From positions 194,209 through 258,208 of the forward strand of contig CAKOYD010000002.1 in NCBI GenBank assembly GCA_934130545.1: a stretch of 64,000 nt of DNA, read 5' to 3'. Made by a program: the position numbers and the translations under genes. This document shows positions 2,413 through 58,666 of this stretch, one piece after another; positions within the stretch are counted from its first letter, which is position 1; every line of letters begins with the position of its first letter. This stretch comes from an uncultured Bacilli bacterium (GTDB lineage: Bacteria > Bacillota_I > Bacilli_A > RF39 > UBA660). Below the pieces are notes generated by a model. It was not told the DNA's origin and searched no databases. It saw only the letters and a list, made by a program, of their open reading frames with translations.

Positions 2413-2527
2413 ACCTTCCTTCTATAATTATTATAAACTATTTTTATTAAATAGCAAAGAAAAATGCTTATAGTTAACACTTTTTAATAACTTTATGTAG
2501 GCATATACATATAATAAAGTAAAGGAT

Positions 2528-2800: not shown

Positions 2801-2846
2801 TTAATAAGCACATTTAGTAATAACTACTGAATGTCTTTTTCATATA

Positions 2847-2876
2847 AAAAACGTTAACTAATTTAGCTAACGTTTT
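2847..2876. terminator. bidirectional intrinsic terminator between convergent genes
   Basis: AAAACGTTA-ACTAATTTAGC-TAACGTTTT gives a 9-bp stem flanked by A- and T-runs. Lies between the convergent 2528..2800(+) and 2880..3518(-) genes. Confidence 0.6.
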
Positions 2877-2879
2877 AAT

Positions 2880-3518
2880 TTACTTTCTTCTTTTTACAGT
2901 AGGCATCGGTTTATCAAAAGATACTTCATTAAATCTTTCTATTCCCTGCTCTTCACAAAGTTCTAAATACTTGTCATCCCAAGATAATCTATAAGCATCA
3001 TTAATATCTAAACCAATTTTACTAACCCATTCTTTAACAATATCTTCCGGATTTCTAGTAGTACTTTTATTCTCTACTTCTATGCATACTCCAAATGGAT
3101 ATTCATTAACAGATATTTCAACATCATCATTTTCAAATACTGTCCTATATCTTTCATAACTTTCAACAACATTAAAATGCATAACATTACTTACTATATA
3201 CAAGAAATTATCTATATCAGCAGGGTTAATTCTTACTTCCTTCTCTTCTTCTTTATTTACTTCAGTTTCAGTAGTATTCTTTAATCTTCTCTTCCAACTA
3301 AGTTTACACTTTGATTCATTATCATTTGCTGATATTCTTACTCTAAATCTTCCATCGATTTCTTGACTATAAAAATCATACTTTTCATCACAATGATTGT
3401 ACTGAATAGTCTTTTCGTAAATTCTAGATTGTTCTTTCAAACCTACTTCTTTTCTTAAATCTTTTAAAATATTTGCTAAATCTTCCGTTGCATAATAAAA
3501 TCTTACTTCATATTCCAT
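2880..3518 (-). CDS. CYTH-domain protein (CyaB/thiamine-triphosphatase-like triphosphate tunnel metalloenzyme)
   Basis: 212 aa. Starts MEYEVRFYY, the hallmark N-terminal ExExK motif of CYTH domains. Acidic-residue pattern throughout. Confidence 0.6.
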   Translation of the reverse strand: MEYEVRFYYATEDLANILKDLRKEVGLKEQSRIYEKTIQYNHCDEKYDFYSQEIDGRFRVRISANDNESKCKLSWKRRLKNTTETEVNKEEEKEVRINPADIDNFLYIVSNVMHFNVVESYERYRTVFENDDVEISVNEYPFGVCIEVENKSTTRNPEDIVKEWVSKIGLDINDAYRLSWDDKYLELCEEQGIERFNEVSFDKPMPTVKRRK

Positions 3519-9238: not shown

Positions 9239-9299
9239 TATAATTTCACCATACTTTCTATATAAAATTATATCATGTATATATTATTTAGTAAATTAA

Positions 9300-9357
9300 A
9301 AATACTCTTAGTTTACACATAAAAAAGCATCACTCTTTTAAAAGTGACACTCTTTAA
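9300..9357 (-). terminator. probable intrinsic terminator after the rubrerythrin gene
   Basis: On the minus strand an imperfect inverted repeat (AGTGTCACTTTTAAAAGAGTGATGC) is followed by TTTTTTAT just after the rbr stop codon. Confidence 0.4.
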
Positions 9358-9897
9358 TTAATAATTAGTACTTCTCATTTCAAAGTATGCTTGTGGATGA
9401 TTACATGCTGGACATACTTTAGGAGCTGTCTTACCTACATGGACATAACCACAGTTTCTACATACCCATACTGTTGTATCTTCTTTATCAAATACTCTTT
9501 CACTAGCTATATTATTTAATAACTTTAAGTATCTTTCTTCATGTTCTTTTTCAATAGCTGCTACTAATCTAAACTTATTAGCAATTTCTTTAAATCCTTC
9601 TTCTTCAGCTTCTTTAGCAAAACTATCATACATATCTGTCCATTCATAGTTTTCTCCTTCAGCTGCTGCTTTTAAGTTTTCTTTAGTACTTGGAACAGCA
9701 CCACCATTTAATAGCTTAAACCACATTTTAGCATGTTCTTTTTCGTTATTAGCAGTTTCTTCAAATATAGCTGCTATTTGTTCATAACCTTCTTTTTTAG
9801 CAGCACTAGCGAAATATGTATATTTATTTCTTGCCTGGCTTTCTCCAGCAAATGCTGTCATTAAGTTTTGATATGTTTTTGAATCTTTTAATTCCAT
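9358..9897 (-). CDS. rbr: rubrerythrin
   Basis: 179 aa. Ferritin-like di-iron domain (EKEHAKMW…EKEHEERY) plus a C-terminal rubredoxin-like CxxC…CxxC (CRNCGYVH…CPACNHP). Confidence 0.9.
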
Positions 9898-9935: not shown

Positions 9936-11063
9936 CTATTTGTCATTATCTTTTAAGAATTTTTTATATTTCTTTATAACTGTCGAATTATCTAGTTCAG
10001 TATTTGCTAATGACTCAAATAAACTCTTTTGTTCTTTAGTAAGCTTTTCAGGCATTATTACTTTAACAACAGCATACATATCGCCTTTTCTCTTTGTATT
10101 TACATTTTCAATACCTTTACCACGTAATCTTAATTTATCTAATGATTGTGTTCCACTTGGAATAGTTAATTCAACATTACCATATATTGTTGGTACTTCT
10201 TTAGTACATCCTAATACAGCTTCCGTTATTGTAAGTGGTAAATCTATATAAATATCATCTTCATTTCTCTTATAAAAATCATGATCTTTAACAGTAAACT
10301 CTAAATATAAGTCCCCATTTCTACCACCATTCTCACCAGCTTCACCTTTACCAGTTAATCTTAATCTATTACCATTATCAATGCCAGCAGGTACGGTTAC
10401 TGTAATAGTCTTACTCTTTCTAATCTTTCCTTTACCATTACAGTCAGGACATTTCTTTTCAAATATATTACCTGTCCCGTGACATTCCGGACAAGTTGTC
10501 TTACTAAGAAAACTACCAAACATAGTTCTTTGTTCACTAGAAATCGTTCCACTACCACGACATTCCGGACAAGTTTTAGAATTAAATCCACCTTCACCAT
10601 GACAATTAGGACAATTATCTACTGTATCTAAATTAATATCTTTTTCACAACCATGAACTGCTTCATCAAAGCTAATTGTCATTCGATATAGGACATCATT
10701 ACCTTTTCTCGGACCATTAGCACTTCTTCTAGAATTAGATGAGAATCCAAAACCACCTAGAATATCATCAAAGATGTCCCCCATATCTCCAAAGTCAAAT
10801 CCATCAAATCCTTGGAATCCTCCGGCACCGCCACCATTATTTTGGAAGGCGCTATGACCAAATTGATCATATTTTTTTCTCTTTTCTGGGTCAGACAATA
10901 CGGCATACGCTTCTTGAACTTCTTTAAACTTCTCCGCAGCATTTTCTTCTTTTGAAACATCCGGATGATATTTCTTAGCAAGTTTTCTAAAAGCCGATTT
11001 TATTTCTGCATCAGTAGCTGTCTTTGATACTCCTAAAACCTCATAATAATCTCTTTTATTCAT
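9936..11063 (-). CDS. dnaJ: molecular chaperone DnaJ
   Basis: 375 aa. J-domain ([31 protein letters not shown]), G/F-rich region, and four CxxCxGxG zinc-finger repeats. Confidence 0.95.
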
Positions 11064-11114
11064 CTTTACACCTTTCTAATAAAGTAGTAGTTCTAGTTTC
11101 CTAGAACTACATTT

Positions 11115-12941
<1,827 letters not shown>

Positions 12942-13154
12942 TTATTCACCTTTCTCTTTATATTTAACATCTATTACTCTTTCATCATTATCTTTGCTGT
13001 TCTTTTTATTTTTTATTAATTTAGTATATATGTAATAAGCAAGTACTGCTACTAAGATAATAGGAAGAAGCCATATTGCTACTCTAACTATTATCACAGA
13101 TACAAGTATTGCTATAAAGATATATAATATTTCCTTAACGGTATCTTTATTCAT
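12942..13154 (-). CDS. small two-TM membrane protein encoded between grpE and dnaK
   Basis: 70-aa ORF with two hydrophobic helices. Overlaps the grpE stop by 8 nt and ends 4 nt before dnaK. Coding is supported only by ORF integrity and tight packing within the operon. Confidence 0.4.
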   Translation of the reverse strand: MNKDTVKEILYIFIAILVSVIIVRVAIWLLPIILVAVLAYYIYTKLIKNKKNSKDNDERVIDVKYKEKGE

Positions 13155-13689
13155 CTATCTTATTCACCTTAACCATCGCAGGACGTATTACTTTATCCTT
13201 ATACATATAACCTTTCTGAAGTACCTCTAAAACGATACCATTTGGTTTATTCTGATCACAATCAGTCATAATTGCTTGGTGATAACTAGCATCAAATTCC
13301 ATATCTTGAGCAAGTATCTCTTTTACTTCATACTTCTCTAATAAACTCTTAGTTTGGTTATAAACCATTTTAATACCCTCTAAAAACTTATTAGCATCTT
13401 CACTTATTGTATCTTTAACAACAAGTGCTCTTTCAAAGTTATCAAGAATTGGTAAAAAGCCTGTAACAATATCTTCATTAGCATACTTTAACATTCTTGA
13501 TACTTCTTCATCCCTTCTTCTTTTATAATTTTGCAATTCTGCTTGATTTCTTAATAAAGATTCCTCTAAAGTTTTAATTCTATTACCAAGTAAATCAATC
13601 TCTTGATTATTATTCTCTACTGCTTCTTCAATAGAAGTTTCTTTATTAATATTTTCTTTTTTCTCTTTCTTCTTATTTTCCATATTCAT
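13147..13689 (-). CDS. grpE: nucleotide exchange factor GrpE
   Basis: 180 aa with N-terminal coiled-coil and GrpE C-terminal core (…RRRDEE…GFLPILDNFERAL…). Positioned within the hrcA-grpE-dnaK-dnaJ operon. Confidence 0.9.
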   Translation of the reverse strand: MNMENKKKEKKENINKETSIEEAVENNNQEIDLLGNRIKTLEESLLRNQAELQNYKRRRDEEVSRMLKYANEDIVTGFLPILDNFERALVVKDTISEDANKFLEGIKMVYNQTKSLLEKYEVKEILAQDMEFDASYHQAIMTDCDQNKPNGIVLEVLQKGYMYKDKVIRPAMVKVNKIDE

Positions 13690-13693
13690 TCCT

Positions 13694-14686
13694 TTAACTA
13701 TTATTTAAATTATCATTAATATAATTAAGTAAAGTAATTACTCTATCATATTCCATTCTTTTAGGACCTACAATAGCAATAGTACCTTCTTCACCATTAT
13801 AATTATATTTTGTTTTAATTACTGATACATCATCACTTAATTCATTCTCTGTTCCAATATAAATATTAATACCATTCTTATCTTCGCTCATTTCATTAAT
13901 TAATGAAGCATCATCAAACTTACTTAGTAATTGTTTAACTTTATCAATATTATTAAACTCTGGTTGCTTTAACATATTAGCCCTACCAACAAAGTGTACA
14001 TCACTAGTTTTAGAAGTAAACTCTGAAAAAGCATCATAGAAGGCATTATATAAAGTAGCATATTGTTTAACATATCTACTAATTACTGGTTTTACATCAT
14101 ATTCTAGCTTTTCATTAATCTCATCAATAGGAGTATCTACTAATAACTTATTAATAAGCTCCACTGTCTTTGTTAATTCTTCACTAGATGCATCACCAAT
14201 ATTCATGTTCTTATATTCCACATGACCTTTATCAGTTATCAGCATCATTACTACTTTACCTTGTTCTAATGGAATAACTTCTACTTTCTTTAAACGATTA
14301 TCTTTAGAACTATTACCTAACACTACTGCTGTATAGTTAGTTAATTCTGATATTAATTCAATGCTTTTCTTTATTGCATCACTTAGTTCTAACGAATTAT
14401 TAGAAAATATTGTTTGTAATTTAAGCATATCTTCACCAGTTAAATCTTTTGGTTTCATTAAGTTTTCAACATAGTACCTATATCCAAGTTCACTAGGAGT
14501 TCGACCTGAAGCAAAATGATTTTTCTCCAAGTATCCTAAATCTTCCAAGATAACCATTTCATTTCTTATTGTTGCTGATGAACAATTAAGAAAATTACAA
14601 ATACTATTTGAACTTACTGGTCTAGCTGATTTAATATACTCTTCCACAATAAATTTTAATATTTCTTTCTGTCTATTTGATATCAA
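13694..14686 (-). CDS. hrcA: heat-inducible transcriptional repressor HrcA
   Basis: 330 aa, winged-helix N-terminus (RQKEILKFIVEEYIKSARPVSS). First gene of the dnaK operon. CIRCE operators lie upstream. Confidence 0.9.
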   Translation of the reverse strand: MISNRQKEILKFIVEEYIKSARPVSSNSICNFLNCSSATIRNEMVILEDLGYLEKNHFASGRTPSELGYRYYVENLMKPKDLTGEDMLKLQTIFSNNSLELSDAIKKSIELISELTNYTAVVLGNSSKDNRLKKVEVIPLEQGKVVMMLITDKGHVEYKNMNIGDASSEELTKTVELINKLLVDTPIDEINEKLEYDVKPVISRYVKQYATLYNAFYDAFSEFTSKTSDVHFVGRANMLKQPEFNNIDKVKQLLSKFDDASLINEMSEDKNGINIYIGTENELSDDVSVIKTKYNYNGEEGTIAIVGPKRMEYDRVITLLNYINDNLNNS

Positions 14687-14699
14687 TATATCACTTCCC

Positions 14700-14726
14700 T
14701 TAGCAATACTATTTTACGATTGCTAA
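14700..14726. promoter_or_regulatory. CIRCE operator copy 1 (HrcA binding site) in the hrcA leader
   Basis: TTAGCAATA-N9-GATTGCTAA matches the CIRCE inverted repeat TTAGCACTC-N9-GAGTGCTAA. Located just downstream of the -10 element. Confidence 0.8.
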
Positions 14727-14730
14727 ATAA

Positions 14731-14759
14731 ATTATATGACAATCTTTTAGCAATGTCAA
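14731..14759 (-). promoter_or_regulatory. sigma-A promoter of the hrcA-grpE-dnaK-dnaJ operon
   Basis: On the minus strand TTGACA-17 nt-TATAAT is a perfect consensus. The -35 element is embedded in the second CIRCE copy. Confidence 0.75.
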
Positions 14760-14773
14760 CACTTTTCTGCTAA
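14747..14773. promoter_or_regulatory. CIRCE-like operator copy 2 overlapping the -35 element
   Basis: TTAGCAATG-N9-TTCTGCTAA is a degenerate CIRCE inverted repeat. Confidence 0.55.
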
Positions 14774-14813
14774 ATATTTAAAAAAATAAAAAATAGCTTA
14801 ACTTTTCGTTAAA

Positions 14814-15698
14814 CTATCTTATCTTACCCTGTCCTAATGTTACAGTTTTATGTCTTTCTCTATCACTTAAAAATACTTTATACCAAGGATTATCTTTACT
14901 TACACCTAACTTATTAAGCATATCTATAAAATCTTTTTCATTTAAAAGTAATAATTCTGATCTTAAAATAATACTAGCTCTTAATAAATCTTGACCATAA
15001 AAACTATTATAAGCAACATCTTCTGGATTTGTTGATAAAACTATTTTACATAACAAGAATTGATTACCCTCTAATATCTTATGAGCAAACTCTCTTTTAC
15101 TACTATCAATAAATTCTACTGGAATATGTTTTATATTTGCTTCTAAATATGATGTTAAATAAATAGAAGGTTCTGTCTTATAATAACGTTCAATCAAAGA
15201 GTCTTCAATACCAACACCCATAACATATATATAAAAGTATTTAAATGTACATAGCATCTTTCTTAAACCAAAATCATTTATTTTTGATAAGTATTCATCA
15301 ATAAAAGATAAATGTATACTAGTAGATTCTCCCGTAACAATATACTTTGCTTGTAACTCTCCTCTATTCAAAACAACATACTCATTTTCAATACCATTAG
15401 ATACTAATTGTTTAGTACACAAAATATTCACCCTAGACATAACATCATCAACATCTATTTGACTATTATATTGCTTTACATATTCTTTATAACTATCATT
15501 AGTAGCACTAAGTAATTCACCCATATTTAACGTTTTTAATATTTCATTTTGTCTTTCAATAGCCATCTTTATCATTCCAACAAGACTAGTAAAACTAGAA
15601 TTATATCGTTTCATTACTTCTCTTTCACATAATTCATTATAATATCTACAAATATCTGCTTCAAGTTTTAATAATTCAATTATATTTGCACTTTCCAT
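14814..15698 (-). CDS. hypothetical cytoplasmic protein
   Basis: 294-aa intact ORF between hrcA and tsf. No recognised motifs. Confidence 0.4.
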   Translation of the reverse strand: MESANIIELLKLEADICRYYNELCEREVMKRYNSSFTSLVGMIKMAIERQNEILKTLNMGELLSATNDSYKEYVKQYNSQIDVDDVMSRVNILCTKQLVSNGIENEYVVLNRGELQAKYIVTGESTSIHLSFIDEYLSKINDFGLRKMLCTFKYFYIYVMGVGIEDSLIERYYKTEPSIYLTSYLEANIKHIPVEFIDSSKREFAHKILEGNQFLLCKIVLSTNPEDVAYNSFYGQDLLRASIILRSELLLLNEKDFIDMLNKLGVSKDNPWYKVFLSDRERHKTVTLGQGKIR

Positions 15699-15794
15699 AG
15701 TAATCCCCCTTAACGATGATGTATTATAGCATAAACAGTTGTATGTGTCAACTACAAAAGAAAAAGAGCTATATTCACTATAACTCTTAATATA

Positions 15795-16664
15795 TTATCC
15801 ATTAATTTGTTTCATAACTTCATCAGCAAAGTTTTCTTCTCTTTTTTCCATTCCTTCGCCAACTTCATATCTAACAAACTTAAGAATTTCACTTTTATTA
15901 TTTTCAACATACTTAGATACTTTTGTCTTATTTTCTTTAATAAATCCTTGATCTACTAAACATACTTCTTCAAAGTATTTATTAAGTCTACCATTAACAA
16001 TCATATCTATCTTGTTTTCTGCTAGTCCTTCATTAACTGCAGTTTCTTTTAAAATAGTTCTTTCTTTTTCTACTACTTCACTAGGTACTACTTCTCTATT
16101 TAAATATAATGGATGCATAGCAGCTACTTGCATAGCAACATCTTTAGCAACTTCTTCATTACTTGTTAATAATGTTAAAGCAACTATTTTACCACCCATG
16201 TGTGAATATGTACCAAATACTTCACTATCTTTCTTTTCAATTACTTCAAATCTTCTAAAAGATAATTTTTCTCCAATAGTAGATATTTTCTCAACTATTA
16301 ATTCTTCAATAGTCTTACCATCTACTGTTAATTTAGAAGCTTCTTCTACAGTTGTAGCATCACTATCTAAAACAGTATCAGCAATTATATTAATAAGATT
16401 CTTAAACTCTTCATTTTTAGCAACAAAGTCAGTTTCAGAATTTAATTCAAGAATTATAGCTTTATTACCTTTTACTTTAGCCAAAGCAAGACCTTCAGCA
16501 GCTATTCTACTAGATTTCTTAGCAGCTTTAGATATACCTTTTTCTCTTAACCAAGTAATTGCTTCTTCCATATTACCATTTGATTCTTCTAATGCTTTCT
16601 TGCAATCTAACATTCCAGCACCAGTTGTCTCTCTTAGTTCTTTTACCATACTTGCACTAATCAT
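15795..16664 (-). CDS. tsf: translation elongation factor Ts
   Basis: 289 aa. N-terminal UBA-like VKELRETTGAGMLDCKKAL. Immediately downstream of rpsB. Confidence 0.93.
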   Translation of the reverse strand: MISASMVKELRETTGAGMLDCKKALEESNGNMEEAITWLREKGISKAAKKSSRIAAEGLALAKVKGNKAIILELNSETDFVAKNEEFKNLINIIADTVLDSDATTVEEASKLTVDGKTIEELIVEKISTIGEKLSFRRFEVIEKKDSEVFGTYSHMGGKIVALTLLTSNEEVAKDVAMQVAAMHPLYLNREVVPSEVVEKERTILKETAVNEGLAENKIDMIVNGRLNKYFEEVCLVDQGFIKENKTKVSKYVENNKSEILKFVRYEVGEGMEKREENFADEVMKQING

Positions 16665-16683
16665 AAAACGCTCCTCTCTTCTT

Positions 16684-17652
16684 TTATTTTAAAGCATCAA
16701 TTAGTTCTTCTTTTTTTAATTTTGAATAACCTTTAATTTCTTTCTTCTTAGCAAGTTCACGAAGTTCGCTTACTGTTAGAATAGTTAAGTCAATCTTTGT
16801 TTCATTATTAACTGCTACTTCTGGCTTTTCAACAACAGTTTCTGTTTTAACTTCTTTTCTTACTTTTTTGTCAAATTTCTTTTCGTTATTCTTTTCACTT
16901 TTGTCATTATTTCTTTCAAAGTTTCTTACTTGTTTTTTAGATTCATCTTCAGTTACATAGTCAACTACTTCTTTTCCAGTAGCTTCGGCGATAGCATTTG
17001 TTAAAGCTCCTAATACTACTTTAATTGATTTAACAGCATCATCATTTCCTGGTATTACATAATCAATATTATCAGGATCACAGTTAGTATCAATTAATCC
17101 AAATACTGGAATACCTAACTTATTAGCTTCTCTAATAGCATTATATTCCTTAGTTGAATCTACAATAATAACTGCTTGTGGTAATTTATCCATATCTCTA
17201 ATACCACATAAGTTCTTATTTAACTTATCATACTCTTTCTTTAAATCAATTACTTCTTTTTTAGGTAATTTTTCAAAAGTTCCGTCTTCTTCCATCTTTT
17301 CGATTTCTGCTAAACGATAAACTCTCTTTCTTATTGTTCTGAAATTAGTTAATGTTCCACCTAACCATCTTTCAGTCATATAATACATACCTGTTCTAGT
17401 TGCTTCTTCAATACAAACATCAGATGCTTGTTTCTTAGTACCTACATATAGTACCTTTCCACCATCTTCTACGATTTTTTTTAAAGCATTGTATGCTCTT
17501 TCAAGTGAATCTTGTGTTTTTTGTAAGTCCATGATATAAATATCATCTCTTGTAGAGTAAATATACTCTTTCATTTTTGGATTCCATCTTTTAGTCTGAT
17601 GACCAAATTGAACTCCACCTTCTAGTAAATAACTCATTGCTACTACTGACAT
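16684..17652 (-). CDS. rpsB: 30S ribosomal protein S2 with a C-terminal extension ending in a Rho_N/SAP-like helix-hairpin-helix
   Basis: S2 core ([22 protein letters not shown]…). Likely start ATG at 17652 with AAGGAGG RBS; the ORF track extends to 17682. About 80 extra C-terminal residues end in [34 protein letters not shown], which resembles the Rho N-terminal domain signature. Confidence 0.9.
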
Positions 17653-17848
17653 ATTTTTTCCTCCTTTTGTTTTTTCTTCCAAATATCTCTTCTCTATATA
17701 CCACTTATTTATAAATAAGCACTAGATATATAAATCAATATTTGTGCTAATTTAAGAAAAGCCATTAATAATATATCATAAAATAGTCAATAATACAAAT
17801 GTTTTTTATTATAAATTAAAAATATTTGTATCTCCTTACCAAAATAGA

Positions 17849-17878
17849 TTGACAATCATTTTTTTAGTATATTATAAT
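17849..17878 (+). promoter_or_regulatory. sigma-A-type promoter for the 17904 gene
   Basis: TTGACA-18 nt-TATAAT located about 25 nt upstream of the GGAGAG RBS. Confidence 0.5.
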
Positions 17879-17903
17879 TAATACATACTAAAAGGAGAGA
17901 AAA

Positions 17904-18389
17904 ATGACAGAAACATTAGCTAGTACTCTAGCAGAATTATTTAAAGGTGGCGGTAAAGAAGTAGCCATATTCATTATTTCTTTATTACCTATTCTAGAAC
18001 TAAGAGGAGGCTTAATTGCCGCCAGAATACTTGGCGTAAAGTTTATAAAAGCCTTTATTATATGTTATATTGCTAATATTCTACCAGTACCATTTATTCT
18101 ACTATTTATCAACTATTTATTTAATAAAATGAGTAAATGGAAACCAACTAAAAAAATAGTAGATTGGCTTAGTAATAAAACATTAAAAAAGAAAGATCAA
18201 ATTGATAAATATGGTTACTTTGGTCTATTCTTATTTGTAGGTATACCACTACCTGGAACAGGTGCTTGGACAGGATCATTACTTGCTATCCTACTTAACC
18301 TAGATAAAAAGAAATCATTTGTAACTATAGCCATAGGTGTCCTAGCCGCAGGTATTATCATGAGCCTACTATCTTATGGAATATTTTAA
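17904..18389 (+). CDS. small integral membrane protein (COG2426 / small multidrug-export-like family)
   Basis: 161 aa with 4 predicted TM helices. LPILELRGG motif typical of the PF06695-like family. Confidence 0.5.
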   Translation: MTETLASTLAELFKGGGKEVAIFIISLLPILELRGGLIAARILGVKFIKAFIICYIANILPVPFILLFINYLFNKMSKWKPTKKIVDWLSNKTLKKKDQIDKYGYFGLFLFVGIPLPGTGAWTGSLLAILLNLDKKKSFVTIAIGVLAAGIIMSLLSYGIF

Positions 18390-18422
18390 AACTCAAGAAA
18401 CTAAAATCTCTTGAGTTTATTT

Positions 18423-20195
18423 TTATTTAACTATATATGGTTCTGTAGCAGTACCTAATCCTCCCCCTGTCACCGTTATCCCTTGTTTAAGTGAAACTAC
18501 AGGGCGCCCACCGAGCGAACCCGTAACGCTGTTTTCGGCGACAATCCCAGAGGAACGCAAATCGATCTCGCCAGCACCCCAGTCGTAGAAGAGAGACGGA
18601 GAAAAGGACCAATTATAAAAACCATTATACAAGTAATATGATGTATTTGTTTGCCATACCACTCCACCTGCAAAAGCCATTTCTTCCGCTGTAATCATTC
18701 CTACTGGATATGTTAACTCGCCATTACCATTATCCGTACTAACTGTAAACTTATCTATTTGTCTTGGACATACTAAACTTAACTTTCTATTTAATAGCCT
18801 TTGAACACTGCCAAAATATAACCACTTATTATAGTTACTGTAATCTTTATTCCAACCACTAGTACTTAAATTATAATATGTTCTATCATTACAAAATCCA
18901 GTATCTTCTAATTGTAATGTATAACTAGTCATATTAGTTTTATACCAAGTATCTATCTTTACTTTAGCATTTGATTCTTTAACATTAATGTCACCTTCAA
19001 ACATTTCATTTAGTAAATCAACTGGTTTCTTACCATTCGTTAGAGTGAAATAGTAAGTATATTTGTCTTCACTATAAATAATGTGTATATAGTATACACT
19101 TTGACAACTAGTACCTGAACTAAAGCAAGTATAATGATATTTGTCAGTATAGTTACTATATTCAGTACCCCAGCTACTTGGATCAGTTAATGTTTTAGTA
19201 TCTTTTAGTGTATATTTCCCTGTACTTGCATCGTACGTAGCATCATTTCCAAACACTATTGAACCTGTTAATGTTGTTATATCTTTGCTTGATGCAGTAT
19301 ATACCGTATTATACATGTATCCAACATATGCCGGAGAATTATAATTTGTATTAAATTGAATATTACCTATCGTAGTAGCACTACCTGTATTATTACATTG
19401 TCCATTAGAAGGTACACCATTATATATTAACTTAACCCCACCTGTTTCTGTTGTTCTTATTATTTTCCAGCAGAAGTTGGCAAATAATACATTATTATCT
19501 ACTGCTCCACGATAGTAATATACTGGTATATTACCTTCGGTATTAGTTGTCATATAGATGCCATTAGTACTACTAGCATCAGATGTTTTACTAAAATCAA
19601 TAGTTGTAGTAGTATCGGCATTATTTTTTATATAATCATATAATGGCTCTCCACCAATTAATACAGTACCATCACTATCTTCTACATCTTTAACTGCTAT
19701 ACCACTAGAAGTTAAATTAGCATTAAACTTCTTACCTAATATATCAGAAGAAGATACAGTATCAGGTATCCATAATTTAATAGTAAATGTTCTAGAAGAA
19801 CCTGGATTTAATATAACATCTCTAATTATTATATTACTATCACTAGACAATATAGCAGGGTTTTCCCCATCCATAGATACTTTAATGAAACTACTATCTA
19901 AAGTACTATTACTCATAGGTTCTAATATAACATTAAACTTATATGCTAAAGTACCTACATTGGTAATAGTAATAGTAGTTTCATTAGAATTCATACCATC
20001 AGTATCACTCATAGGATAAACATTATTTAAGTTTATACTTACATTACTATAACTTAATTTTAATGTACCAGTACTATAATTTTGTACAATAGAACTTACT
20101 TCACTAGTAAATAATGCATAAGTTTCTTTACCAATAGATACAAATAACATTAAAACAATTAATATTAACAATAATTTTTTATTTCTACTATTCAT
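18423..20195 (-). CDS. large secreted protein with a SipW-cognate (TasA/camelysin-type) signal peptide; 3' end compositionally atypical
   Basis: 590 aa. N-terminus MNSRNKKLLLILIVLMLFVSIGKETYALFTSEVSS matches the SipW-cognate signal class (…GTYAYFSDTE…). S/T/N/Y-rich body. The last ~60 codons are GC-rich with atypical codons. Confidence 0.7.
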   Translation of the reverse strand: MNSRNKKLLLILIVLMLFVSIGKETYALFTSEVSSIVQNYSTGTLKLSYSNVSINLNNVYPMSDTDGMNSNETTITITNVGTLAYKFNVILEPMSNSTLDSSFIKVSMDGENPAILSSDSNIIIRDVILNPGSSRTFTIKLWIPDTVSSSDILGKKFNANLTSSGIAVKDVEDSDGTVLIGGEPLYDYIKNNADTTTTIDFSKTSDASSTNGIYMTTNTEGNIPVYYYRGAVDNNVLFANFCWKIIRTTETGGVKLIYNGVPSNGQCNNTGSATTIGNIQFNTNYNSPAYVGYMYNTVYTASSKDITTLTGSIVFGNDATYDASTGKYTLKDTKTLTDPSSWGTEYSNYTDKYHYTCFSSGTSCQSVYYIHIIYSEDKYTYYFTLTNGKKPVDLLNEMFEGDINVKESNAKVKIDTWYKTNMTSYTLQLEDTGFCNDRTYYNLSTSGWNKDYSNYNKWLYFGSVQRLLNRKLSLVCPRQIDKFTVSTDNGNGELTYPVGMITAEEMAFAGGVVWQTNTSYYLYNGFYNWSFSPSLFYDWGAGEIDLRSSGIVAENSVTGSLGGRPVVSLKQGITVTGGGLGTATEPYIVK

Positions 20196-36610: not shown

Positions 36611-39600
36611 CTATTGCCAACAATAACTATCGTTTAATTTAGTATATCCACTAGCACATGAATATGTTGTTACTGTTGTTCCTGATGTATATATTTTACA
36701 TGACTTATTTACAAGGTATCCACTTGAGCAAGAATAAGCATATGAACAATTATTACTACTAAGAGTATATCCAGATGGGCAATTTGCACCACCAGAATTA
36801 GCACAACTATATTGTGTTACCCTTCCAGTACTAGTTCGCTTACAATAAAAACTTCCTGTAAGATGACTATTAGCACTAGTATAATAATAACATCCGCCAC
36901 TATCTTGTAGATTACTACCACAATCTTCATAAGAACTTGCTGTTGTATTCGCTACTGTACCACTACATGTATTAGTATTACCAGCTCCATCTTTTACATA
37001 GAAAGTATATGTCTTTGCTCCTGTTATTGTACCAGTACTACTATTACTGCCACTATATGATGAACTCCAACCATAGTATGCTAGACCACTTCCTCCTTCA
37101 TCAGAATATGTGGCAGTTATTGTTGTACCACTAGCACTTAATGTACATTTTGGTCTAATTGTATCGATAATAATCCAGTGAGCATATAACGTTGTATCTG
37201 ATGTTTTATCCCAATCTCTTACACTTTGACCACTACTATTATAATATTGTGTTCCACCACTTGCTGAGTCATAATAACCGGCAAATGTATATCCAGTCAT
37301 AGTAGGTAAAGTTATATCAGGATAACTACCTTGTTTAGTACCATGAACAATAGTAGTTGAGTCAGTACCTCCTGTACCACCATTCTTATTGAATGTTATA
37401 GTATATACTTTAGCTGTCCAATAAGCATATAGTGTATGATCACTAGCATTGGATACTATAGTATCACTTGTTACTCTAGTACCTGTACCATTTTCTCCCG
37501 TATACCAACCGCCAAATGAATAACCTGCTTTTATTGGTGTTGGCATATCACCATATTTTTGACTTTGTTGAACAGTTCTGTTTATACTAGTCAGAATTAT
37601 TCTAGCTGCTCCATTACCAGTCTTAACATAATTACTAACAGAATTCCCGGAAATATTAGTTGTAGAATATGTTTTAGTACTTGTTGCATCAGAAGTTGCG
37701 CAATTATAACAATACATATATTTATCAGTAAGCAGTGAATTGCCAATATAACCAGAACCACCTCCGCCAGGAGCAATGTGTCCACTTCGTGATCCACCAT
37801 AAAAACCACCGCCTCCGCCAGTAGTAGCCCAATCACTTCCACCGCCTTGGCCGAATGACCCAGTAATAACACCACTATTTACTTCGCTTGCTCTATTACA
37901 ATCACTTGTTATTTTACCTCCGGCGGTCTGAGTTCCGCCAAGGCCTACACACCATTGATTATCTTCAACACTGGATTCATCTCCAGAATTACCTATGTAT
38001 CCACCACCGGAACCACCACGTAATCCATATGTTCCAACATTTTCACCATAGTAAGATCCACCGCCTCCGCCAGAAACAATTAATATATTTGATAGGCTAG
38101 ATGATAATGATGATAGTAATCCAGACTTTGTAGCAATATGAGTCGCTCCACCGCCGGAACCAAATGATCTATTGCAGCATGCCTGGCCTCCTGTTGAACC
38201 ACCACCATTATATCCACCCACAATATTCTCTAACGTTCCAGACGAGGTTCTGCTTCCCTGGCCTCCAACATTAACATATAAAATATCACCTGAGTTTAAT
38301 GTAGTCGTTCCTTGTGAATATCCCCCATAACCACCAACAGTACCATCTATTGTTGTTCCTCCTTGAGCACCCCATGTTTCAAGTTTATATGTTCCAGTAT
38401 ATGGGACTGTGTAAATATTTTCTTTGGCCTCTGTAAATGTTGAAATAACATTATAACTTCCACCGGCAACATCAAAAGTTACATTTACAGTTTTATTCCA
38501 TTTAGCATACAAAGTATGATTATTGGCAATAGTTATTACTGTATTCTCATCTACTTTAGTACCTGCCCCATTCTCACCAGTATACCAACCACCGAAAGTA
38601 TATCCTTCTCTAGTTGGGGTTGGTAATTCACCATATTTGTCTTTATAAGTTACATTATAGTTGGTGTCACTTATTAATGTAACTCTAGCTGCTCCATCAC
38701 CGCTTTTAGCGTAATCAGTAGTTGGTGTCGCTGAAGCATTGGTAGTTGTATATGTCTTAGTATCGGTAGCATCAGATGTTGTACAATTATAGCAATACAT
38801 ATATTTATTAGCAAGTAATGAATTGCCTATGTAACTGGATCCACCGCCACCGCCACCATTCCTAGCAGAACCGCCAGCTCCACCGTATAGACCACCGCCT
38901 CCACCGCCAGCTCCGTGCTCAAAGCTTGCTTCGTATCCACCTTGGCCTCCTAATCCAAATTGTCCAACTGTACCAGTAACACTTCCAGAGCCAAGGGTTC
39001 CTCCGGAGGTTTGTGTACCGCCACCGCCACCGCCTTGGAATGAACTACTATTGTGTCCACCGGTGTTACCCTGTATCCCACCGCCTGAACCACCTATCTC
39101 ATTTGCATTAAATACTCCAGTACCACCGCCGCCGCCTGAAACTATCAGGATACTTGATAGAGAGGATGATAAAGACGACAATAAACCTGTCTTTGTTGCA
39201 ATATGGGTAGCACCACCCCCAGTTCCTGCACTGTAATTTGCATTTCCACCACCATTATATCCACCAGTAGTAAATGTACTTTCAGCATTAGAACTTACGC
39301 CTTGACCTCCGACATTAAGATATAAAATATCTCCTTTTTTTAATGAAACAACTCCAGTAGAGTAACTACCATAACCAATTTGAGTTGTAGAATATTGGCC
39401 GCCTTGGGCTCCCCAAGTTTCTAATTTATAATCACCAGTATATGTTACTTTGTAAGTATACTCTTGCGGTTGGGTGTATGTAACAGCAAAATTACCTCCT
39501 GCTAAGTCTAAACTAACTGTTATATTTTTAGGTTCAAACACTACTTCACAATTAACATTACTTGTTATATTAGATATAGTTAAGATATTATTAGATACTG

Positions 39601-40201
39601 TTCCTTCACATGTTGTTGATTTATATTGATAACCATCATTAGGTGCTAAAGTATATTTAACTGTACCATTCTTAGTAGATAATTTAATATTAGGTTTTAC
39701 TTTACCGTAAGTATTATTATTAGATTTAACTATTGCTTTATAGTATACATCTTTATTTATGCCAGTACTATTGCTAGGTAATTCTAATATTTCTTTTTCA
39801 AAACCTACTATATCTTTAATACTTACTGTTGTATCAGTACTACTATTATTTTGAATAAATACTTTAACTAGATTAGTATTCTTACTATTAAGTACTCCAC
39901 TAGTATCTGTATCACTTATATTAATTATACTAATATTAGAGTTTACTCCTTCTAAATAAAGTAGATATGACATATTAAATTCATTAGGATTACTTATTTT
40001 AATATCTACTATTTTACTATCATAACTAGGTATTAATATATCTCTATTAGTTCTATCACCTAAAACTATATTAAATAGATAATCTGCTTTACTACTATTA
40101 CCTTCGGTAATGGTAGTATCTATTGCAAATGTTCCTATTAGAGAAATAACTCCTATTATAAATATCAAAAATAATCCTATATATATTGTCCTTTTTTTCA
40201 T
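36611..40201 (-). CDS. giant secreted glycine-rich surface protein: signal peptide, duplicated Gly-rich module with Flg_new (Listeria-Bacteroides) repeats, and a Cys-rich C-terminal module shared with the pilin-like protein
   Basis: ~1196 aa from ATG 40201 (AGGTGG RBS; the ORF track uses GTG at 40213). N-terminal signal MKKRTIYIGLFLIFIIGVISLIG. Two ~345-aa tandem copies (YKLETWGAQGG…GGATHIATK.GLLSSLSSSLS.ILIVSGGGGG…YMYCYNC…GY.FGGWYTGENG.GT.V…HTLYA.W). A third Flg_new repeat. C-terminal ~200 aa Cys-rich tail. Confidence 0.8.
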   Translation of the reverse strand: MKKRTIYIGLFLIFIIGVISLIGTFAIDTTITEGNSSKADYLFNIVLGDRTNRDILIPSYDSKIVDIKISNPNEFNMSYLLYLEGVNSNISIINISDTDTSGVLNSKNTNLVKVFIQNNSSTDTTVSIKDIVGFEKEILELPSNSTGINKDVYYKAIVKSNNNTYGKVKPNIKLSTKNGTVKYTLAPNDGYQYKSTTCEGTVSNNILTISNITSNVNCEVVFEPKNITVSLDLAGGNFAVTYTQPQEYTYKVTYTGDYKLETWGAQGGQYSTTQIGYGSYSTGVVSLKKGDILYLNVGGQGVSSNAESTFTTGGYNGGGNANYSAGTGGGATHIATKTGLLSSLSSSLSSILIVSGGGGGTGVFNANEIGGSGGGIQGNTGGHNSSSFQGGGGGGTQTSGGTLGSGSVTGTVGQFGLGGQGGYEASFEHGAGGGGGGLYGGAGGSARNGGGGGGSSYIGNSLLANKYMYCYNCTTSDATDTKTYTTTNASATPTTDYAKSGDGAARVTLISDTNYNVTYKDKYGELPTPTREGYTFGGWYTGENGAGTKVDENTVITIANNHTLYAKWNKTVNVTFDVAGGSYNVISTFTEAKENIYTVPYTGTYKLETWGAQGGTTIDGTVGGYGGYSQGTTTLNSGDILYVNVGGQGSRTSSGTLENIVGGYNGGGSTGGQACCNRSFGSGGGATHIATKSGLLSSLSSSLSNILIVSGGGGGSYYGENVGTYGLRGGSGGGYIGNSGDESSVEDNQWCVGLGGTQTAGGKITSDCNRASEVNSGVITGSFGQGGGSDWATTGGGGGFYGGSRSGHIAPGGGGSGYIGNSLLTDKYMYCYNCATSDATSTKTYSTTNISGNSVSNYVKTGNGAARIILTSINRTVQQSQKYGDMPTPIKAGYSFGGWYTGENGTGTRVTSDTIVSNASDHTLYAYWTAKVYTITFNKNGGTGGTDSTTIVHGTKQGSYPDITLPTMTGYTFAGYYDSASGGTQYYNSSGQSVRDWDKTSDTTLYAHWIIIDTIRPKCTLSASGTTITATYSDEGGSGLAYYGWSSSYSGSNSSTGTITGAKTYTFYVKDGAGNTNTCSGTVANTTASSYEDCGSNLQDSGGCYYYTSANSHLTGSFYCKRTSTGRVTQYSCANSGGANCPSGYTLSSNNCSYAYSCSSGYLVNKSCKIYTSGTTVTTYSCASGYTKLNDSYCWQ
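37430..39500 (-). repeat. internal tandem duplication (~1.05-1.08 kb unit, two copies) inside the giant gene
   Basis: Nucleotide-level similarity at ~1082-bp offset (for example 37688-37770 versus 38770-38850). The protein shows two co-linear ~345-aa modules. Boundaries are approximate. Confidence 0.7.
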
Positions 40202-40225
40202 AATTAACACCACCTATAGACATGA

Positions 40226-55039: not shown

Positions 55040-55621
55040 ATGAATACTATAAAAGAAACTATTGAAAACACTTTAATTATTAAAAATTCTAGATTTATAA
55101 CTATTATCTATAACATTAACGATATCAATGATATTGATAAATATTTAAAACAAGTTAAAGATAAATATAAAGATGCTACCCATTATTGTTATGCCTATAT
55201 ATTACCCAATAATATTAAATGTAGTGATGATGGTGAACCAGGTGGTACTGCCGGTAAACCAATATTAGATGTCTTAACTAAACATAATCTAAACTTTGTT
55301 CTAGCAATTGTTGTTAGATATTTTGGTGGTATAAAATTAGGAGCTGGTGGTCTTATTCGTGCTTATTCTAAATGTATATCTACTTGTTTAAATAATACTA
55401 AGTTAACTAAACTAATTCTTGGTAAAAACATCGATATCTATTTTACTTATAAAGATATTAATGATATTGACTTATTACTAACTAACTGTCATATCAATAA
55501 TAAAAATTATCAAGATATGATTAGTTATAATGTAAATATTCCTAATGATTTATTACCAATTCTTGAAAATAAATACCAAGTTAAAGTAAATAATGATATC
55601 TATATAAAAAGTGATATGTAA
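55040..55621 (+). CDS. yigZ: IMPACT/YigZ family protein
   Basis: 193 aa, UPF0029 N-terminal domain (…SRFITIIYNI…DDGEPGGTAGKPIL…). Confidence 0.75.
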   Translation: MNTIKETIENTLIIKNSRFITIIYNINDINDIDKYLKQVKDKYKDATHYCYAYILPNNIKCSDDGEPGGTAGKPILDVLTKHNLNFVLAIVVRYFGGIKLGAGGLIRAYSKCISTCLNNTKLTKLILGKNIDIYFTYKDINDIDLLLTNCHINNKNYQDMISYNVNIPNDLLPILENKYQVKVNNDIYIKSDM

Positions 55622-55633
55622 TTACACATACCA

Positions 55634-57289
55634 CTATTTTTTATAACAATAACTATCATTTAATTTAGTATAATCACTTGGACAAGTATAAGTATTAACT
55701 GTTGTACCAGATGTATATATTTTACACGACTTATTTACTAATGACCCACTTGTACAATAATAATCAGTAATCGTTGTACAATTATTACTATAAAATGTAT
55801 AACCACTTGAACAAGAAAGTGTAGAATTTTCTTTACCTGCACAATTATTTTCTTCCACAGCATTAGAAGTTTTACTCTTACAAACATAAGTCCCAGTATA
55901 ATGCTTCTTTGTATTAGCACTAGAATAATAATAACAACCACCGGAATCACTGCTATAGTTTCCACAATCTTCATAACTACCCTTTGTAGTTTCAATTATT
56001 GTTGCACTACAACTATTAGTATTACCAGCAGTATCCTTAACATAATATGTATGAGTACCAATACCTATATTTCTACTAGTACTACTATCACCACTATAAG
56101 ATGAATTCCAACCATTATACATTATTTGACTCATATTATCACTAGATATTGCTGTAATCGTACTAGTATTAACATTTAATGTACAACTAGGAACAGTTCG
56201 ATCAATATAAATATTAACTTCTATCTTACTACTATTACCAGCTTCATCTATTGCTTCAATAATAGCCTTTCGATTACCATTTCCGGATAATGTCTTAGAA
56301 CAAGCATTATTACAATTAGCCCCACTATTACTAGGAGTATCCCCATTAACACTACCTTCACTATTATAAGTCCATTTAATCACTGCATTTTTATCCGTAC
56401 TAATATCAAACCAATACCCATAATTTTTCCATTCATTAACTACATAATTACTACTAGTATTAGTAATAAACTCTCCCTTACTCTTAGGAGTATTTCCTTC
56501 ATAACTACCTATCTTATAAATACTAAGACTAATTACAGGTGGATTACTGTCAAATATTGCATCAATGTTTTTAGTTGCTTCTGCTACATTCGCTCCACTA
56601 TAATTAATAAAAGCTGATACTACACCATTAGATTTAACACTTAATCTAACTACTTCACTATTTGCTAAATACCAATGACCTGACTCCAAATTATTAACAG
56701 TATTGTTACTACAACTACCTATACTATCACAAGCATATACTATATCATTAGTAGTAACAGTATTTTCACTAAATCCAGATATATAAAAGTATCTATAATA
56801 ATCACTACCTAAAGTATTATATAATATCTTAGCATTCGTCATATTAACATTTTTACCCTTATTATCTGTAGAAATTGATATACTAGATTGATATCCACAA
56901 TCAACATCAGGTAAAATACTATCTTCAAAAGAAAAACTAGTCTCTTTAATAACTTTACTATCTTTATCTCTAATTACTTTTATCATTGTACCCTTAGAAA
57001 ACTTATCATTCTCATCAATAACTTTTTCATCAAAATACCCAATCTCTATCATATTACCTAATGATATACAACTATATTCATAATTATCTTTAACATTCCA
57101 ATAACTAGATACTTCATCATTATATACTATAGCGGCACTCTTAATATTATTATAAGTAATTAACTTAGCATTATCTTTTGCCTTATTAATGTTTTTCATT
57201 ACTATATATACTGTAACACTTAAAACTACTCCAAGTATAACTACTGTACTTAATAATTCAACTAAAGTAAATCCATTCTTCTTTTTCAT
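55634..57289 (-). CDS. type-IV-pilin-like (prepilin N-methylation signal) protein with a ~500-aa C-terminal extension ending in the shared Cys-rich module
   Basis: 551 aa. N-terminus MKKKNGFTLVELLSTVVILGVVLSV is a class-III (prepilin peptidase) signal with Glu+5. The C-terminal ~200 aa are co-linear with the giant protein's C-terminus (…YYVKDTAGNTNSC…GSYEDCG…DSGGCYYY…SGSLVNKSCKIYTSGTTVNTYTCPSDYTKLNDSYC). Confidence 0.75.
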   Translation of the reverse strand: MKKKNGFTLVELLSTVVILGVVLSVTVYIVMKNINKAKDNAKLITYNNIKSAAIVYNDEVSSYWNVKDNYEYSCISLGNMIEIGYFDEKVIDENDKFSKGTMIKVIRDKDSKVIKETSFSFEDSILPDVDCGYQSSISISTDNKGKNVNMTNAKILYNTLGSDYYRYFYISGFSENTVTTNDIVYACDSIGSCSNNTVNNLESGHWYLANSEVVRLSVKSNGVVSAFINYSGANVAEATKNIDAIFDSNPPVISLSIYKIGSYEGNTPKSKGEFITNTSSNYVVNEWKNYGYWFDISTDKNAVIKWTYNSEGSVNGDTPSNSGANCNNACSKTLSGNGNRKAIIEAIDEAGNSSKIEVNIYIDRTVPSCTLNVNTSTITAISSDNMSQIMYNGWNSSYSGDSSTSRNIGIGTHTYYVKDTAGNTNSCSATIIETTKGSYEDCGNYSSDSGGCYYYSSANTKKHYTGTYVCKSKTSNAVEENNCAGKENSTLSCSSGYTFYSNNCTTITDYYCTSGSLVNKSCKIYTSGTTVNTYTCPSDYTKLNDSYCYKK

Positions 57290-57347
57290 ACTAAACCTAC
57301 TTTCTATCTAACATAATTATAAAATAAAAACTAAGTATTATCATGTA

Positions 57348-58028
57348 TTAATTAATCTTTCCATCTTCATAAAAACTATAATAACTATTGTTCCCAATTA
57401 TTAAGTGATCTACCAATTTAATAGAATGTATTACCCCTATCTCATAAATATTTCTAGTAATCATTATATCTTCTTTACTAGGAGTAGGATCTCCTGAAGG
57501 ATGATTATGAATACATATAATTGCGGACGCTGATAACAAATAAGCTTCTTTAAATATCTCTCTTGGATGAGCAATAGACTTATTAATACTACCTACAAAT
57601 AATTTCTTTTTACCTAAGCACTTCTTCTTATTATCTAAATAAAGACAATAAAACTCTTCTTGATAAGAATCTCTAAATAGATAATTAAAATACTTAATAA
57701 TCTTATCTGGACTATTACATACTAATAAATCTTTATCTAACACTTCTTGATATATTCTTCTTCCAAGTTCAATAATTGCCTTTAATTCAATAGCTTTAAC
57801 TTTACCAATTCCCTCTACTTGTTCTAAAGTATTTATCCCAATATCTTTTAAATTACTAACATCTCCTATAACACTAAGTAAATTATAAGATACTTCCTTA
57901 ACATTATATTTCTTCGTACCAGTCTTTAATATTATTGATAATAATTCTTCATTAGATAAACTCTTCTCTCCATACATAAGTAATCTCTCCCTAGGTAATT
58001 CTATCTTAGGAATATTCTTTAACTTCAT
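57348..58028 (-). CDS. radC: RadC-like JAMM-family protein
   Basis: C-terminal HNHPSGDPTPSKED JAMM motif and N-terminal HhH. Probable start at 58028 with a GGGGGTG RBS; the ORF track extends to 58076. Confidence 0.85.
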   Translation of the reverse strand: MKLKNIPKIELPRERLLMYGEKSLSNEELLSIILKTGTKKYNVKEVSYNLLSVIGDVSNLKDIGINTLEQVEGIGKVKAIELKAIIELGRRIYQEVLDKDLLVCNSPDKIIKYFNYLFRDSYQEEFYCLYLDNKKKCLGKKKLFVGSINKSIAHPREIFKEAYLLSASAIICIHNHPSGDPTPSKEDIMITRNIYEIGVIHSIKLVDHLIIGNNSYYSFYEDGKIN

Positions 58029-58126
58029 ATAACACCCCCTATTAATAGTAATATATAAAATATCCTTTTTCAACAAAATTAACTAAAAAAAGATATAGAC
58101 TTTTAAATCTATATCTCACACTTACA

Positions 58127-58561: not shown

Positions 58562-58639
58562 CTTCCTTTCATTTTATGTGTTGACACCACATGTAAGAGA
58601 CTTTTCTATCTCATTACAATTATAATTATATCACTTATT

Positions 58640-58666
58640 TTAGCAATGTCAATAGTTAATTGCTAA
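58640..58666. promoter_or_regulatory. CIRCE operator overlapping a sigma-A promoter upstream of hsp20
   Basis: TTAGCAATG-N9-AATTGCTAA on the plus strand. On the minus strand TTGACA (within CIRCE)-16 nt-TATAAT. Same IR half-sites as the hrcA CIRCE copies. Confidence 0.75.

Follow-up and report, generated by a model that had tools for sequence, protein, structure and literature searches.

A probable modular type IV pilin with an exchangeable cysteine-rich C-terminal region in an uncultured Bacilli lineage

Introduction

Modular pilins, in which a class III pilin module is joined to additional modules, were defined as a class by Raynaud et al. 2021 (PMC8179133), whose catalogue comprises more than 1,200 proteins with 264 architectures and who examined PilB of Streptococcus sanguinis. 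In this species, both PilB, which bears a vWA module, and PilC, which bears a lectin module, have been studied by experiment (PMC8179133, PMC9934059). The gene considered here encodes a protein of 551 amino acids (aa) and lies in a stretch of 64,000 nucleotides, called the window below, of contig CAKOYD010000002.1 (assembly GCA_934130545.1) from an uncultured Bacilli bacterium. Its product consists of a pilin module, two β-sandwich domains (D2 and D3), a PKD/immunoglobulin (Ig)-like domain and a cysteine-rich tail, the last two forming an Ig+tail module that is also found on a 1200-aa protein encoded in the same window. With moderate confidence, this product is regarded as a modular type IV pilin that would be cleaved, built into a filament through its first helix (α1), and equipped with a stalk projecting an adhesive tail tip. 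It is modular in that Ig+tail also occurs on non-pilin proteins and that allelic forms exist with Flg_new repeats.

The window pilin resembles PilB and PilC of S. sanguinis in its monoderm host, in the fusion of a class III pilin module to C-terminal modules known from proteins unrelated to pili as well, in its size of about 50–60 kDa, and in its proposed role as a tip-exposed adhesin. However, PilB and PilC are bimodular, are encoded inside the pil machinery locus and carry recognisable effector domains, whereas the window pilin is an orphan with four domains after the pilin module and a tail lacking any Pfam or PDB relative. Moreover, its effector region is replaced between strains, and its module is shared with giant proteins that are not pilins.

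A comparable layout is found in CofB of enterotoxigenic E. coli and TcpB of Vibrio cholerae, type IVb minor pilins in which the pilin module is followed by all-β domains (a β-repeat and a β-sandwich) on a linker. CofB and TcpB form a tip-located complex that mediates attachment (PMC8179133, PMC10191384). These type IVb systems differ from the window pilin: they belong to diderm bacteria, their leaders are long and their genes lie in the operon, and neither cassette variation nor a Cys-rich tail is seen in them. No sequence or fold match between the window pilin and CofB or TcpB was obtained.

The Neisseria PilE/pilS system offers another parallel, since there, too, a conserved N-terminal pilin part is joined to a hypervariable C-terminal part, with conserved sequence bounding the 3' end. 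In contrast to pilS, no silent promoterless cassettes were found, and the extra copies are complete genes. The PilY1/PilC tip adhesins likewise combine a carrier with an exchangeable effector and share modules between carriers (PMC8179133), but PilY1, for which docking is by a β-propeller, does not belong to the pilins, whereas here the carrier itself is the pilin. Modular pilins have already been described; the window protein stands apart by its orphan position, its several domains after the pilin module, its uncharacterised tail fold, and its cassette replacement between alleles together with the sharing of the module with non-pilin giants.

The class III signal and the pilin module

The N-terminus of the protein, MKKKNG followed by FTLVELLSTVVILGVVLSVTVYIVM, scores 28 bits against the Pfam model N_methyl PF07963 (cut-off 21.2) and 24 bits against TIGR02532 (cut-off 16.3). 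Both values exceed the curated cut-offs, which supports the canonical class III signal named in a preceding reading made from the letters of the window (the sequence-only reading). The signal is made up of a six-residue basic leader with Gly as its last residue, Phe at +1, Glu at +5 and about 20 hydrophobic residues, with 20 positions after Glu5 devoid of charge. Across all six frames of the window, the motif G[FY..][ST]LxE occurs only once, at the start of this open reading frame (ORF).

The same features recur in the family. The homologue search returned 92 proteins of 423–956 aa, 86 of which have a pilin-type N-terminus, a set picked by a motif that already requires Glu(+5). Within this set, a six-residue leader with 2–4 basic residues is present in 73 proteins and Phe(+1) in 84. 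In an alignment of 14 diverse members (A3), whose pilin modules are 19–38% identical, Gly(-1), Phe(+1) and Glu(+5) are all invariant.

The structural model obtained with AlphaFold2 (AF2) was built from 49 homologues, has a mean predicted local distance difference test (pLDDT) score of 81.8, and is numbered without Met1. It places a helix at 8–58 and strands at 64–66, 69–75, 101–107 and 113–118, with an all-β structure beyond. The predicted architecture is therefore that of a pilin, an α1 helix of about 50 residues packed on a small β-sheet. Cys74 and Cys131 of this module, the columns of which are invariant in alignment A1, likely form a disulfide. When a profile of the first ~135 aa of the 14 diverse members was compared with PDB sequences, all 22 matches at E<0.1 were type IV pilins or pseudopilins, including geopilin (3e-13), S. 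sanguinis PilE1 (2e-9), GspG (4e-7), MshA, PilA and PpdD, with alignments spanning α1 only.

The stalk domains and the cysteine-rich tail

The pilin module is followed by D2, which is 59–100% identical across the close family, and D3, which is missing in some alleles (P0072). As a whole, the model resembles tandem Ig-like adhesin stalks, with fold matches to the Ig domains of PrgB, to C123 of antigen I/II and to RTX-adhesin repeats at E values of about 1e-5 to 1e-4. The PKD/Ig-like domain at 366–432 gives a weak HYR match and weak PKD-like Foldseek matches (TMt 0.45), and constitutes the upstream half of the module common to the pilin and the 1200-aa protein. Its downstream half is the hypervariable tail of 119 aa, which ends in PSDYTKLNDSYCYKK.

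The distribution of cysteines follows this domain order. There are 18 in total, two in each of the first four units and ten in the tail, where their spacing gives five pairs of the form C-x(9-12)-C. Such an arrangement would provide one disulfide per domain and five β-hairpin staples in the tail. The Cys content of the tail is 8.4%, compared with 1.15% in the window proteome. Firmicutes mostly exclude cysteine from exported proteins (PMC2823432).

Modelled alone, residues 366–551 reach a pLDDT of 94.9. This region has no PDB fold match at E<=1e-3, its first ~70 residues being only weakly PKD-like, and no match was found among BFVD structures or in a sequence-profile search of the PDB. It belongs to no Pfam family, and only faint EGF-like matches were seen.

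A strain-variable cassette

Within the close family, identity is 60–100% over the first ~365 residues and the C-termini differ, with allelic forms adding extra Ig-like domains and Flg_new repeats. Tail identity is 13–39% in most alleles and 74% in P0003. The mosaic is illustrated by P0004, in which the pilin module, D2, D3, Ig and tail are 76, 89, 100, 93 and 29% identical to those of the window protein, respectively. The window tail is nearer (55–58%) to the tails of other carriers, namely the giant protein and P0076, a pilin-like protein with the N-terminal motif KG/YLIVE. The very end is more uniform, as C[YWF][KQRN] closes 66 of the 92 homologues, typically as ...SGYTK(L/I)N(D/N)SYCYK.

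At the DNA level, contigs of the same or sister species are collinear with the window at ~94–95% identity from serS through radC into the first 1.1 kb of the pilin gene. Homology ends at 56188 (codon ~367) and restarts at 55693 (contigs L001 and L002) or 55676 (L015 and L016), which corresponds to the last 14–19 codons, and then continues through yigZ and uvrC. Contigs with an identical YceD have different content at this site, namely a pilin of 757–759 aa and, behind it, a pilin-like gene for 313 aa that bears a separate Ig+tail and whose start (KG/YLIVE) overlaps the stop of the long pilin (L015/L016). From these comparisons, the pilin locus is a strain-variable cassette site. The comparison indicates that residues 1–365 form a strongly conserved carrier and that the segment from codon ~367 to near the stop is an apparently exchangeable cassette, a pattern consistent with diversifying selection acting on a binding tip at the cell surface.

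Several known sources of such variation were considered and rejected. A variable tail generated by a diversity-generating retroelement is not supported, as no template repeat lies nearby and the mismatches show no bias towards adenine (30% and 34%); nor did the ORFs of the window include a recognisable reverse transcriptase. Silent cassettes of the pilS type were dismissed, since the extra Ig+tail copies are complete genes (the 313-aa pilin-like gene and the giant protein). A recent conversion event involving the pilin gene and that of the giant protein was discarded as well, given a DNA identity of 69–79% and a longest exact shared stretch of 17 nt. Since the window copies share no more than 17 identical nucleotides in a row, the pattern resembles a replacement of cassettes between alleles that took place long ago, and not gene conversion still at work.

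Further pilin-like genes were observed at these loci. The second, non-canonical gene with KG/YLIVE and Ig+tail lies after the long pilin at 12544–13476 in L015 and 9461–10402 in L016. In L014, a non-canonical Ig+tail gene (8055–9239) is paired with a 162-aa pilin-like gene with the motif KG/FMMAE (9264–9752). The non-canonical pilin-like genes with Ig+tail encode 313–394 aa, and the N-termini of KG/YLIVE and KG/FMMAE proteins are not recognised by Pfam.

The tail module on other carriers

The sequence-only reading had noted a Cys-rich C-terminal module common to the pilin and a giant protein, and this relationship is borne out: residues 360–550 of the pilin are 55% identical (E=1e-45) to residues 1014–1200 of the 1200-aa protein (36611–40213, minus strand). 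The rest of the latter contains two ALK_LTK_GRD glycine-rich domains and three Flg_new repeats. The two Ig+tail copies of the window, which lie 18 kb apart, have a DNA identity of 68.6% over 481 nt by blastn, and agree at 79% of 438 aligned positions in a global alignment.

An exhaustive profile search of 1.84e9 representative proteins yielded 140 tail matches at E<=1e-3. It superseded an earlier word-index search with the C-terminal 189 aa, which had returned only 6 short fragments. About three dozen matches are single and cover nearly the full profile, each at the extreme C-terminus of its carrier. The remaining matches are partial and multiple, in long Cys/Lys-rich repeat proteins such as P0110; these suggest that the unit of the tail is a generic C-x-G-Y...C hairpin. 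The carriers of true tails are of three kinds: canonical pilins (P0118, P0129, P0198), non-canonical pilin-like proteins (P0111, P0125, P0138, P0182, of which P0182 passes TIGR02532), and non-pilin giants with ordinary signal peptides (P0117, P0122, P0132, P0139, P0143, P0241). A phage or receptor-binding-protein origin of Ig+tail was rejected, as no match was present in viral contigs or BFVD structures.

Some secreted proteins of the window and its relatives were noted alongside. The N-terminus of the 1200-aa protein (…LIGTFAIDTT) appears TasA/SipW-like by eye and is confirmed by no model. A secreted protein of 590–608 aa is encoded at 18423–20195 (minus strand) in the window, 1903–3729 in L004, 12808–14631 in L006 and 15164–16990 in L001. 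Its paralogues are ~80% identical in nucleotides and lie beside or near the pilin-paralogue loci of relatives; the protein has no Pfam or NCBIfam match. A TasA/SipW-type signal or TasA-like fibre in the 1200-aa and 590-aa proteins was rejected as a by-eye impression left unconfirmed by NCBIfam, Pfam and PDB sequences.

Related loci and other pilin-type genes

The matches of the family by GTDB are metagenome-assembled genomes (MAGs) labelled 'uncultured Bacilli bacterium' and 'Bacillales bacterium UBA6414'. The order radC, pilin, convergent yigZ, uvrC is kept in L001, L002 and L015–L017, and the distant P0082 is also encoded near yigZ-uvrC. The MAG CAKPNA01 contains three paralogous loci: one at radC-yigZ, one with a short pilin and a 2306-aa protein, and one broken copy. 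The second of these, L004 (CAKPNA010000006.1), encodes a 182-aa canonical short pilin at 9986–10534 (N_methyl 29.6 bits) and, at 10984–17904, the 2306-aa protein, in which a pilin-type N-terminal core (N_methyl 25.5 bits) is joined to 17 Flg_new repeats and a glycine-rich C-terminus. Other pilin-type genes of the lineage are those for 162 aa (L014) and 313 aa (L015/L016). Because the lineage keeps short and further pilin-type genes, which are sensible only with a machine to assemble them, a functioning filament machine is to be expected. Taken together, the invariant signal residues and the other intact pilin-type genes favour a functioning filament system.

Two further loci were recorded. The third CAKPNA01 paralogue (L006, 11000–12532) is fragmented and pseudogene-like, and its UBA6414 counterpart (L003) is interrupted too. 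In a Tenericutes MAG (L007, 9989–11605), three tandem short pilin genes of 142–153 aa follow miaA, with no machinery genes adjoining.

The ~12 related loci that were inspected are orphan without exception. Housekeeping genes likewise make up the whole surroundings of P0077, which carries the tail, and of P0082, P0086, P0087 and P0090, which are distant long pilins. As every locus examined sits among housekeeping genes, the orphan state is the norm for this pilin family. Model species, too, have scattered type IVa pilus genes, and minor pilins particular to one species are often encoded at a distance (PMC10191384). That an orphan position is unusual is therefore not supported, although the statement of the sequence-only reading that no assembly genes adjoin the pilin gene does hold. 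Literature searches on pili in RFN20-type lineages and on 'orphan pilin' gave nothing relevant.

The proposed mode of action and its alternatives

As a modular type IV pilin, the protein would be cleaved after Gly6, and probably N-methylated at Phe7, by a prepilin peptidase whose gene lies elsewhere. A type IV filament machine, either of the type IV pilus or of the Com type, would then move the pilin from the membrane into a filament through α1. The subunit would sit at or near the filament tip, or be rare along the shaft, since an extension of ~420 aa appears too bulky for the filament body. There, the stalk composed of D2, D3 and Ig may present the hypervariable Cys-rich tail as a ligand-binding adhesin end, with the tip cassette presumably exchanged between strains at conserved anchors. 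The suggested role of the extra modules in filament-mediated adhesion has indirect support from the predicted adhesin-stalk-like folds and from tail hypervariability. A minor or tip pilin-adhesin with its machinery elsewhere was among the options put forward in the sequence-only reading, and it stands as the best interpretation of the models and comparisons, matching the described class of modular pilins (PMC8179133).

A number of points weigh against this interpretation. The pilin fold is predicted from an AF2 model, and the tail, for which no homologue is known, gives no hint of a ligand or a binding function. A content of 18 Cys is atypical for an exported Firmicute protein (PMC2823432), and the window yielded no candidate thiol-disulfide oxidoreductase. 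Inspection of the window ORFs by eye, Pfam on 10 unclear ORFs, and motif scans for GspE-family Walker A/B and the peptidase motif GxGDxK revealed no gene for a prepilin peptidase, an extension ATPase or a platform protein in the 64 kb, and none was present in the 10 kb to the left, which brings the coverage to about 74 kb of the source genome. Genes of these three kinds were equally lacking from the housekeeping surroundings at L001–L004, L006–L010 and L014–L019, and the same motif scans of all related loci detected only PriA-type Walker A motifs. Since no machinery gene was found in the window or at related loci, processing and assembly are wholly inferred. Finally, the tip-capping subunit of known systems lacks Glu5 (PMC10191384), while the window protein retains it, so that a strictly terminal tip position is not implied.

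The lack of assembly genes near any of the ~12 family loci would also suit a membrane-anchored surface adhesin outside any filament, in which the class III-type N-terminus is only a signal anchor, left intact or trimmed by a prepilin peptidase, and the four β-domains span the wall so that the tail is displayed straight from the membrane. The length of the protein and its stalk-like Ig domains are compatible with this, and the 2306-aa paralogue is hard to picture inside a pilus. However, an anchor needs none of the residues Gly(-1), Phe(+1) and Glu(+5), which are invariant in deeply diverged members; moreover, pilin homology runs through the C-terminal part of α1, the modelled sheet is pilin-like and has a conserved Cys pair, and short canonical pilins are kept in the lineage. 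A simple anchor is thus considered unlikely. The position of radC, which shares the orientation of the pilin gene and is separated from its start by 58 bp in which no terminator is predicted, points in another direction, namely to a Com-type (competence) minor pilin serving DNA uptake and co-regulated with radC. The radC gene belongs to competence regulons of some bacteria, which counts for such a role, as do the Com_YlbF gene adjoining the distant homologue P0082 and the weak, α1-only matches to ComGC, ComGD and ComGE. These matches nevertheless remain below the equivalog cut-offs (ComGE 19 vs 49, ComGC 17.1 vs 75 and ComGD 14.4 vs 70 bits), and the hypervariable, Cys-rich build with its Ig domains and Flg_new alleles resembles adhesins, not DNA receptors. 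The pilin gene also has a promoter-like site of its own, and inspection of its upstream sequence by eye revealed no cin-box. A competence function is accordingly judged quite improbable.

The sequence-only reading had additionally suggested a pseudopilin-displayed effector, for which no specific support was found. The best NCBIfam alignment by E-value is indeed with GspG (residues 6–65), as would befit a pseudopilin of a secretion piston like that of the type II secretion system, or a carrier of a secreted effector. Nevertheless, the TIGR01710 GspG match reaches 25.6 bits where 88.85 are required, and covers α1 only; no enzymatic or toxin domain was detected in the protein with Pfam and NCBIfam, and monoderm bacteria have no outer membrane for such a system to cross. 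A secretion role is therefore very improbable, and the modular pilin remains the favoured interpretation.

A wider proposal is made tentatively, as a possibility on the less likely side. According to it, the 119-aa tail would be an undescribed fold, a disulfide-stapled β-hairpin stack, acting as a hypervariable and interchangeable ligand-binding tip on pilins (400 to >900 aa), minor-pilin-like proteins and giant Sec-exported proteins. It would be swapped by recombination at the Ig start and the last ~15 codons, making up a population-level adhesin-cassette system across two display machines.

Genomic neighbourhood and expression signals

Features of the locus are collected in Table 1. The flanking genes were identified as yigZ and radC in the sequence-only reading, which agrees with the Pfam assignments, and the adjacency of radC, described there as conserved, is indeed maintained in the lineage (L001, L002, L015–L017). 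Its description as unusual was not upheld: radC is a conserved neighbour, and its position appears to reflect lineage synteny, with no functional tie to the pilin gene demonstrated. Because a promoter-like site lies in the gap and no terminator is predicted in the radC-pilin interval, the pilin gene may be transcribed alone, together with radC, or both. The scan that gave the hairpin at the pilin end found 2 terminator-like sites, with 0.3 expected by chance.

Table 1. Coordinates of the pilin gene, its predicted domains and associated features (window positions)
Feature	Position	Strand	Basis and remarks
Modular type IV pilin-like gene (probable), 551 aa, complete, ATG start	55634..57289	-	ORF list; stop codon 55634-55636
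Leader peptide MKKKNG, residues 1-6, Gly(-1); predicted prepilin-peptidase cleavage next	57272..57289	-	Read from sequence
α1 helix, residues 7-59: hydrophobic α1N (Phe+1, Glu+5), then amphipathic α1C	57113..57271	-	AF2 DSSP and PDB profile alignments
Pilin globular part, residues 60-135: four β-strands, two short helices	56885..57112	-	AF2 DSSP
D2, conserved β-sandwich, residues 136-248, Cys187/Cys193	56546..56884	-	AF2, pLDDT ~85-92
D3, conserved Ig-like β-sandwich, residues 249-365, Cys326/Cys330	56195..56545	-	AF2 and alignment
PKD/Ig-like domain 'PxCTLS...YYVKDxAGNT..CS', residues 366-432, Cys369/Cys427	55994..56194	-	pLDDT >90
Hypervariable Cys-rich tail, residues 433-551, 119 aa, 10 Cys	55637..55993	-	AF2
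Strain-variable DNA cassette	55694..56187	-	blastn of window vs L001, L002, L015, L016
Second Ig+tail module copy, C-terminus of 1200-aa protein	36614..37159	-	Sequence comparison with pilin
yigZ (UPF0029/Impact_N), convergent neighbour downstream of pilin gene	55040..55621	+	Pfam E=2.6e-36
radC (RadC JAB domain), upstream of pilin gene, same strand	57348..58076	-	Pfam RadC E=3e-42
Promoter-like site ATGATA-17-TATAAT, in 58-bp radC-pilin gap	57316..57344	-	10/12 consensus matches; consensus match only
Terminator-like hairpin, 11-bp stem and T run	55610..55635	-	2-base overlap with pilin stop; junction with convergent yigZ

The window is core chromosome of a bacterium with 27% GC. It includes the sporulation genes cotJB/cotJC and yunB, the dnaK operon, mraZ-rsmH-ftsL-PBP, uvrC, serS and a glycosyltransferase cluster. 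Past its left end, a 10-kb extension beyond ruvA (L011–L013) contains ruvB, tyrS, rpsO, pnp and mutS.

Other observations in the region concern genes outside the pilin locus. Upstream of hsp20, the window has a perfect sigma-70 consensus promoter (12/12) with an extended TG at 58625–58652 (minus strand). Relatives possess a two-gene island between ylqF and yceD, consisting of genes for a 611-aa AAA_5 ATPase and a 420–428-aa DUF2201 protein (L001 1466–4550, L015 1413–4500, L017 1636–4720), which the window lacks (between 62695 and 62752). In one strain, L012, three extra ORFs of ~480–496 aa without a Pfam match (1708–3192, 11567–13012 and 17462–18952), inserted at separate places in a sequence that is collinear elsewhere, may represent a mobile element family.

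Biological meaning

Type IV filaments are virtually ubiquitous (PMC10191384). Modular pilins are thought to explain how such simple filaments gain functions, and the few that have been studied all come from cultured pathogens or commensals. The family described here extends this picture to a low-GC lineage of Bacilli that is uncultured and occurs commonly in metagenomes of the human gut; the exact RuvA sequence of the window is indexed in 241 blocks of a public contig collection. The 2306-aa paralogue of L004 would extend the size range of pilin-type proteins, for which 860 aa is the extreme in the described class (PMC8179133). The Cys-rich exported domains, in turn, run counter to the general exclusion of cysteine from Firmicute exoproteins (PMC2823432). 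Should ligands of the host or of other microbes be bound by the tip, the locus would be a marker of strain-level niche or host specificity, and it would provide a tractable case of tinkering with carriers and effectors.

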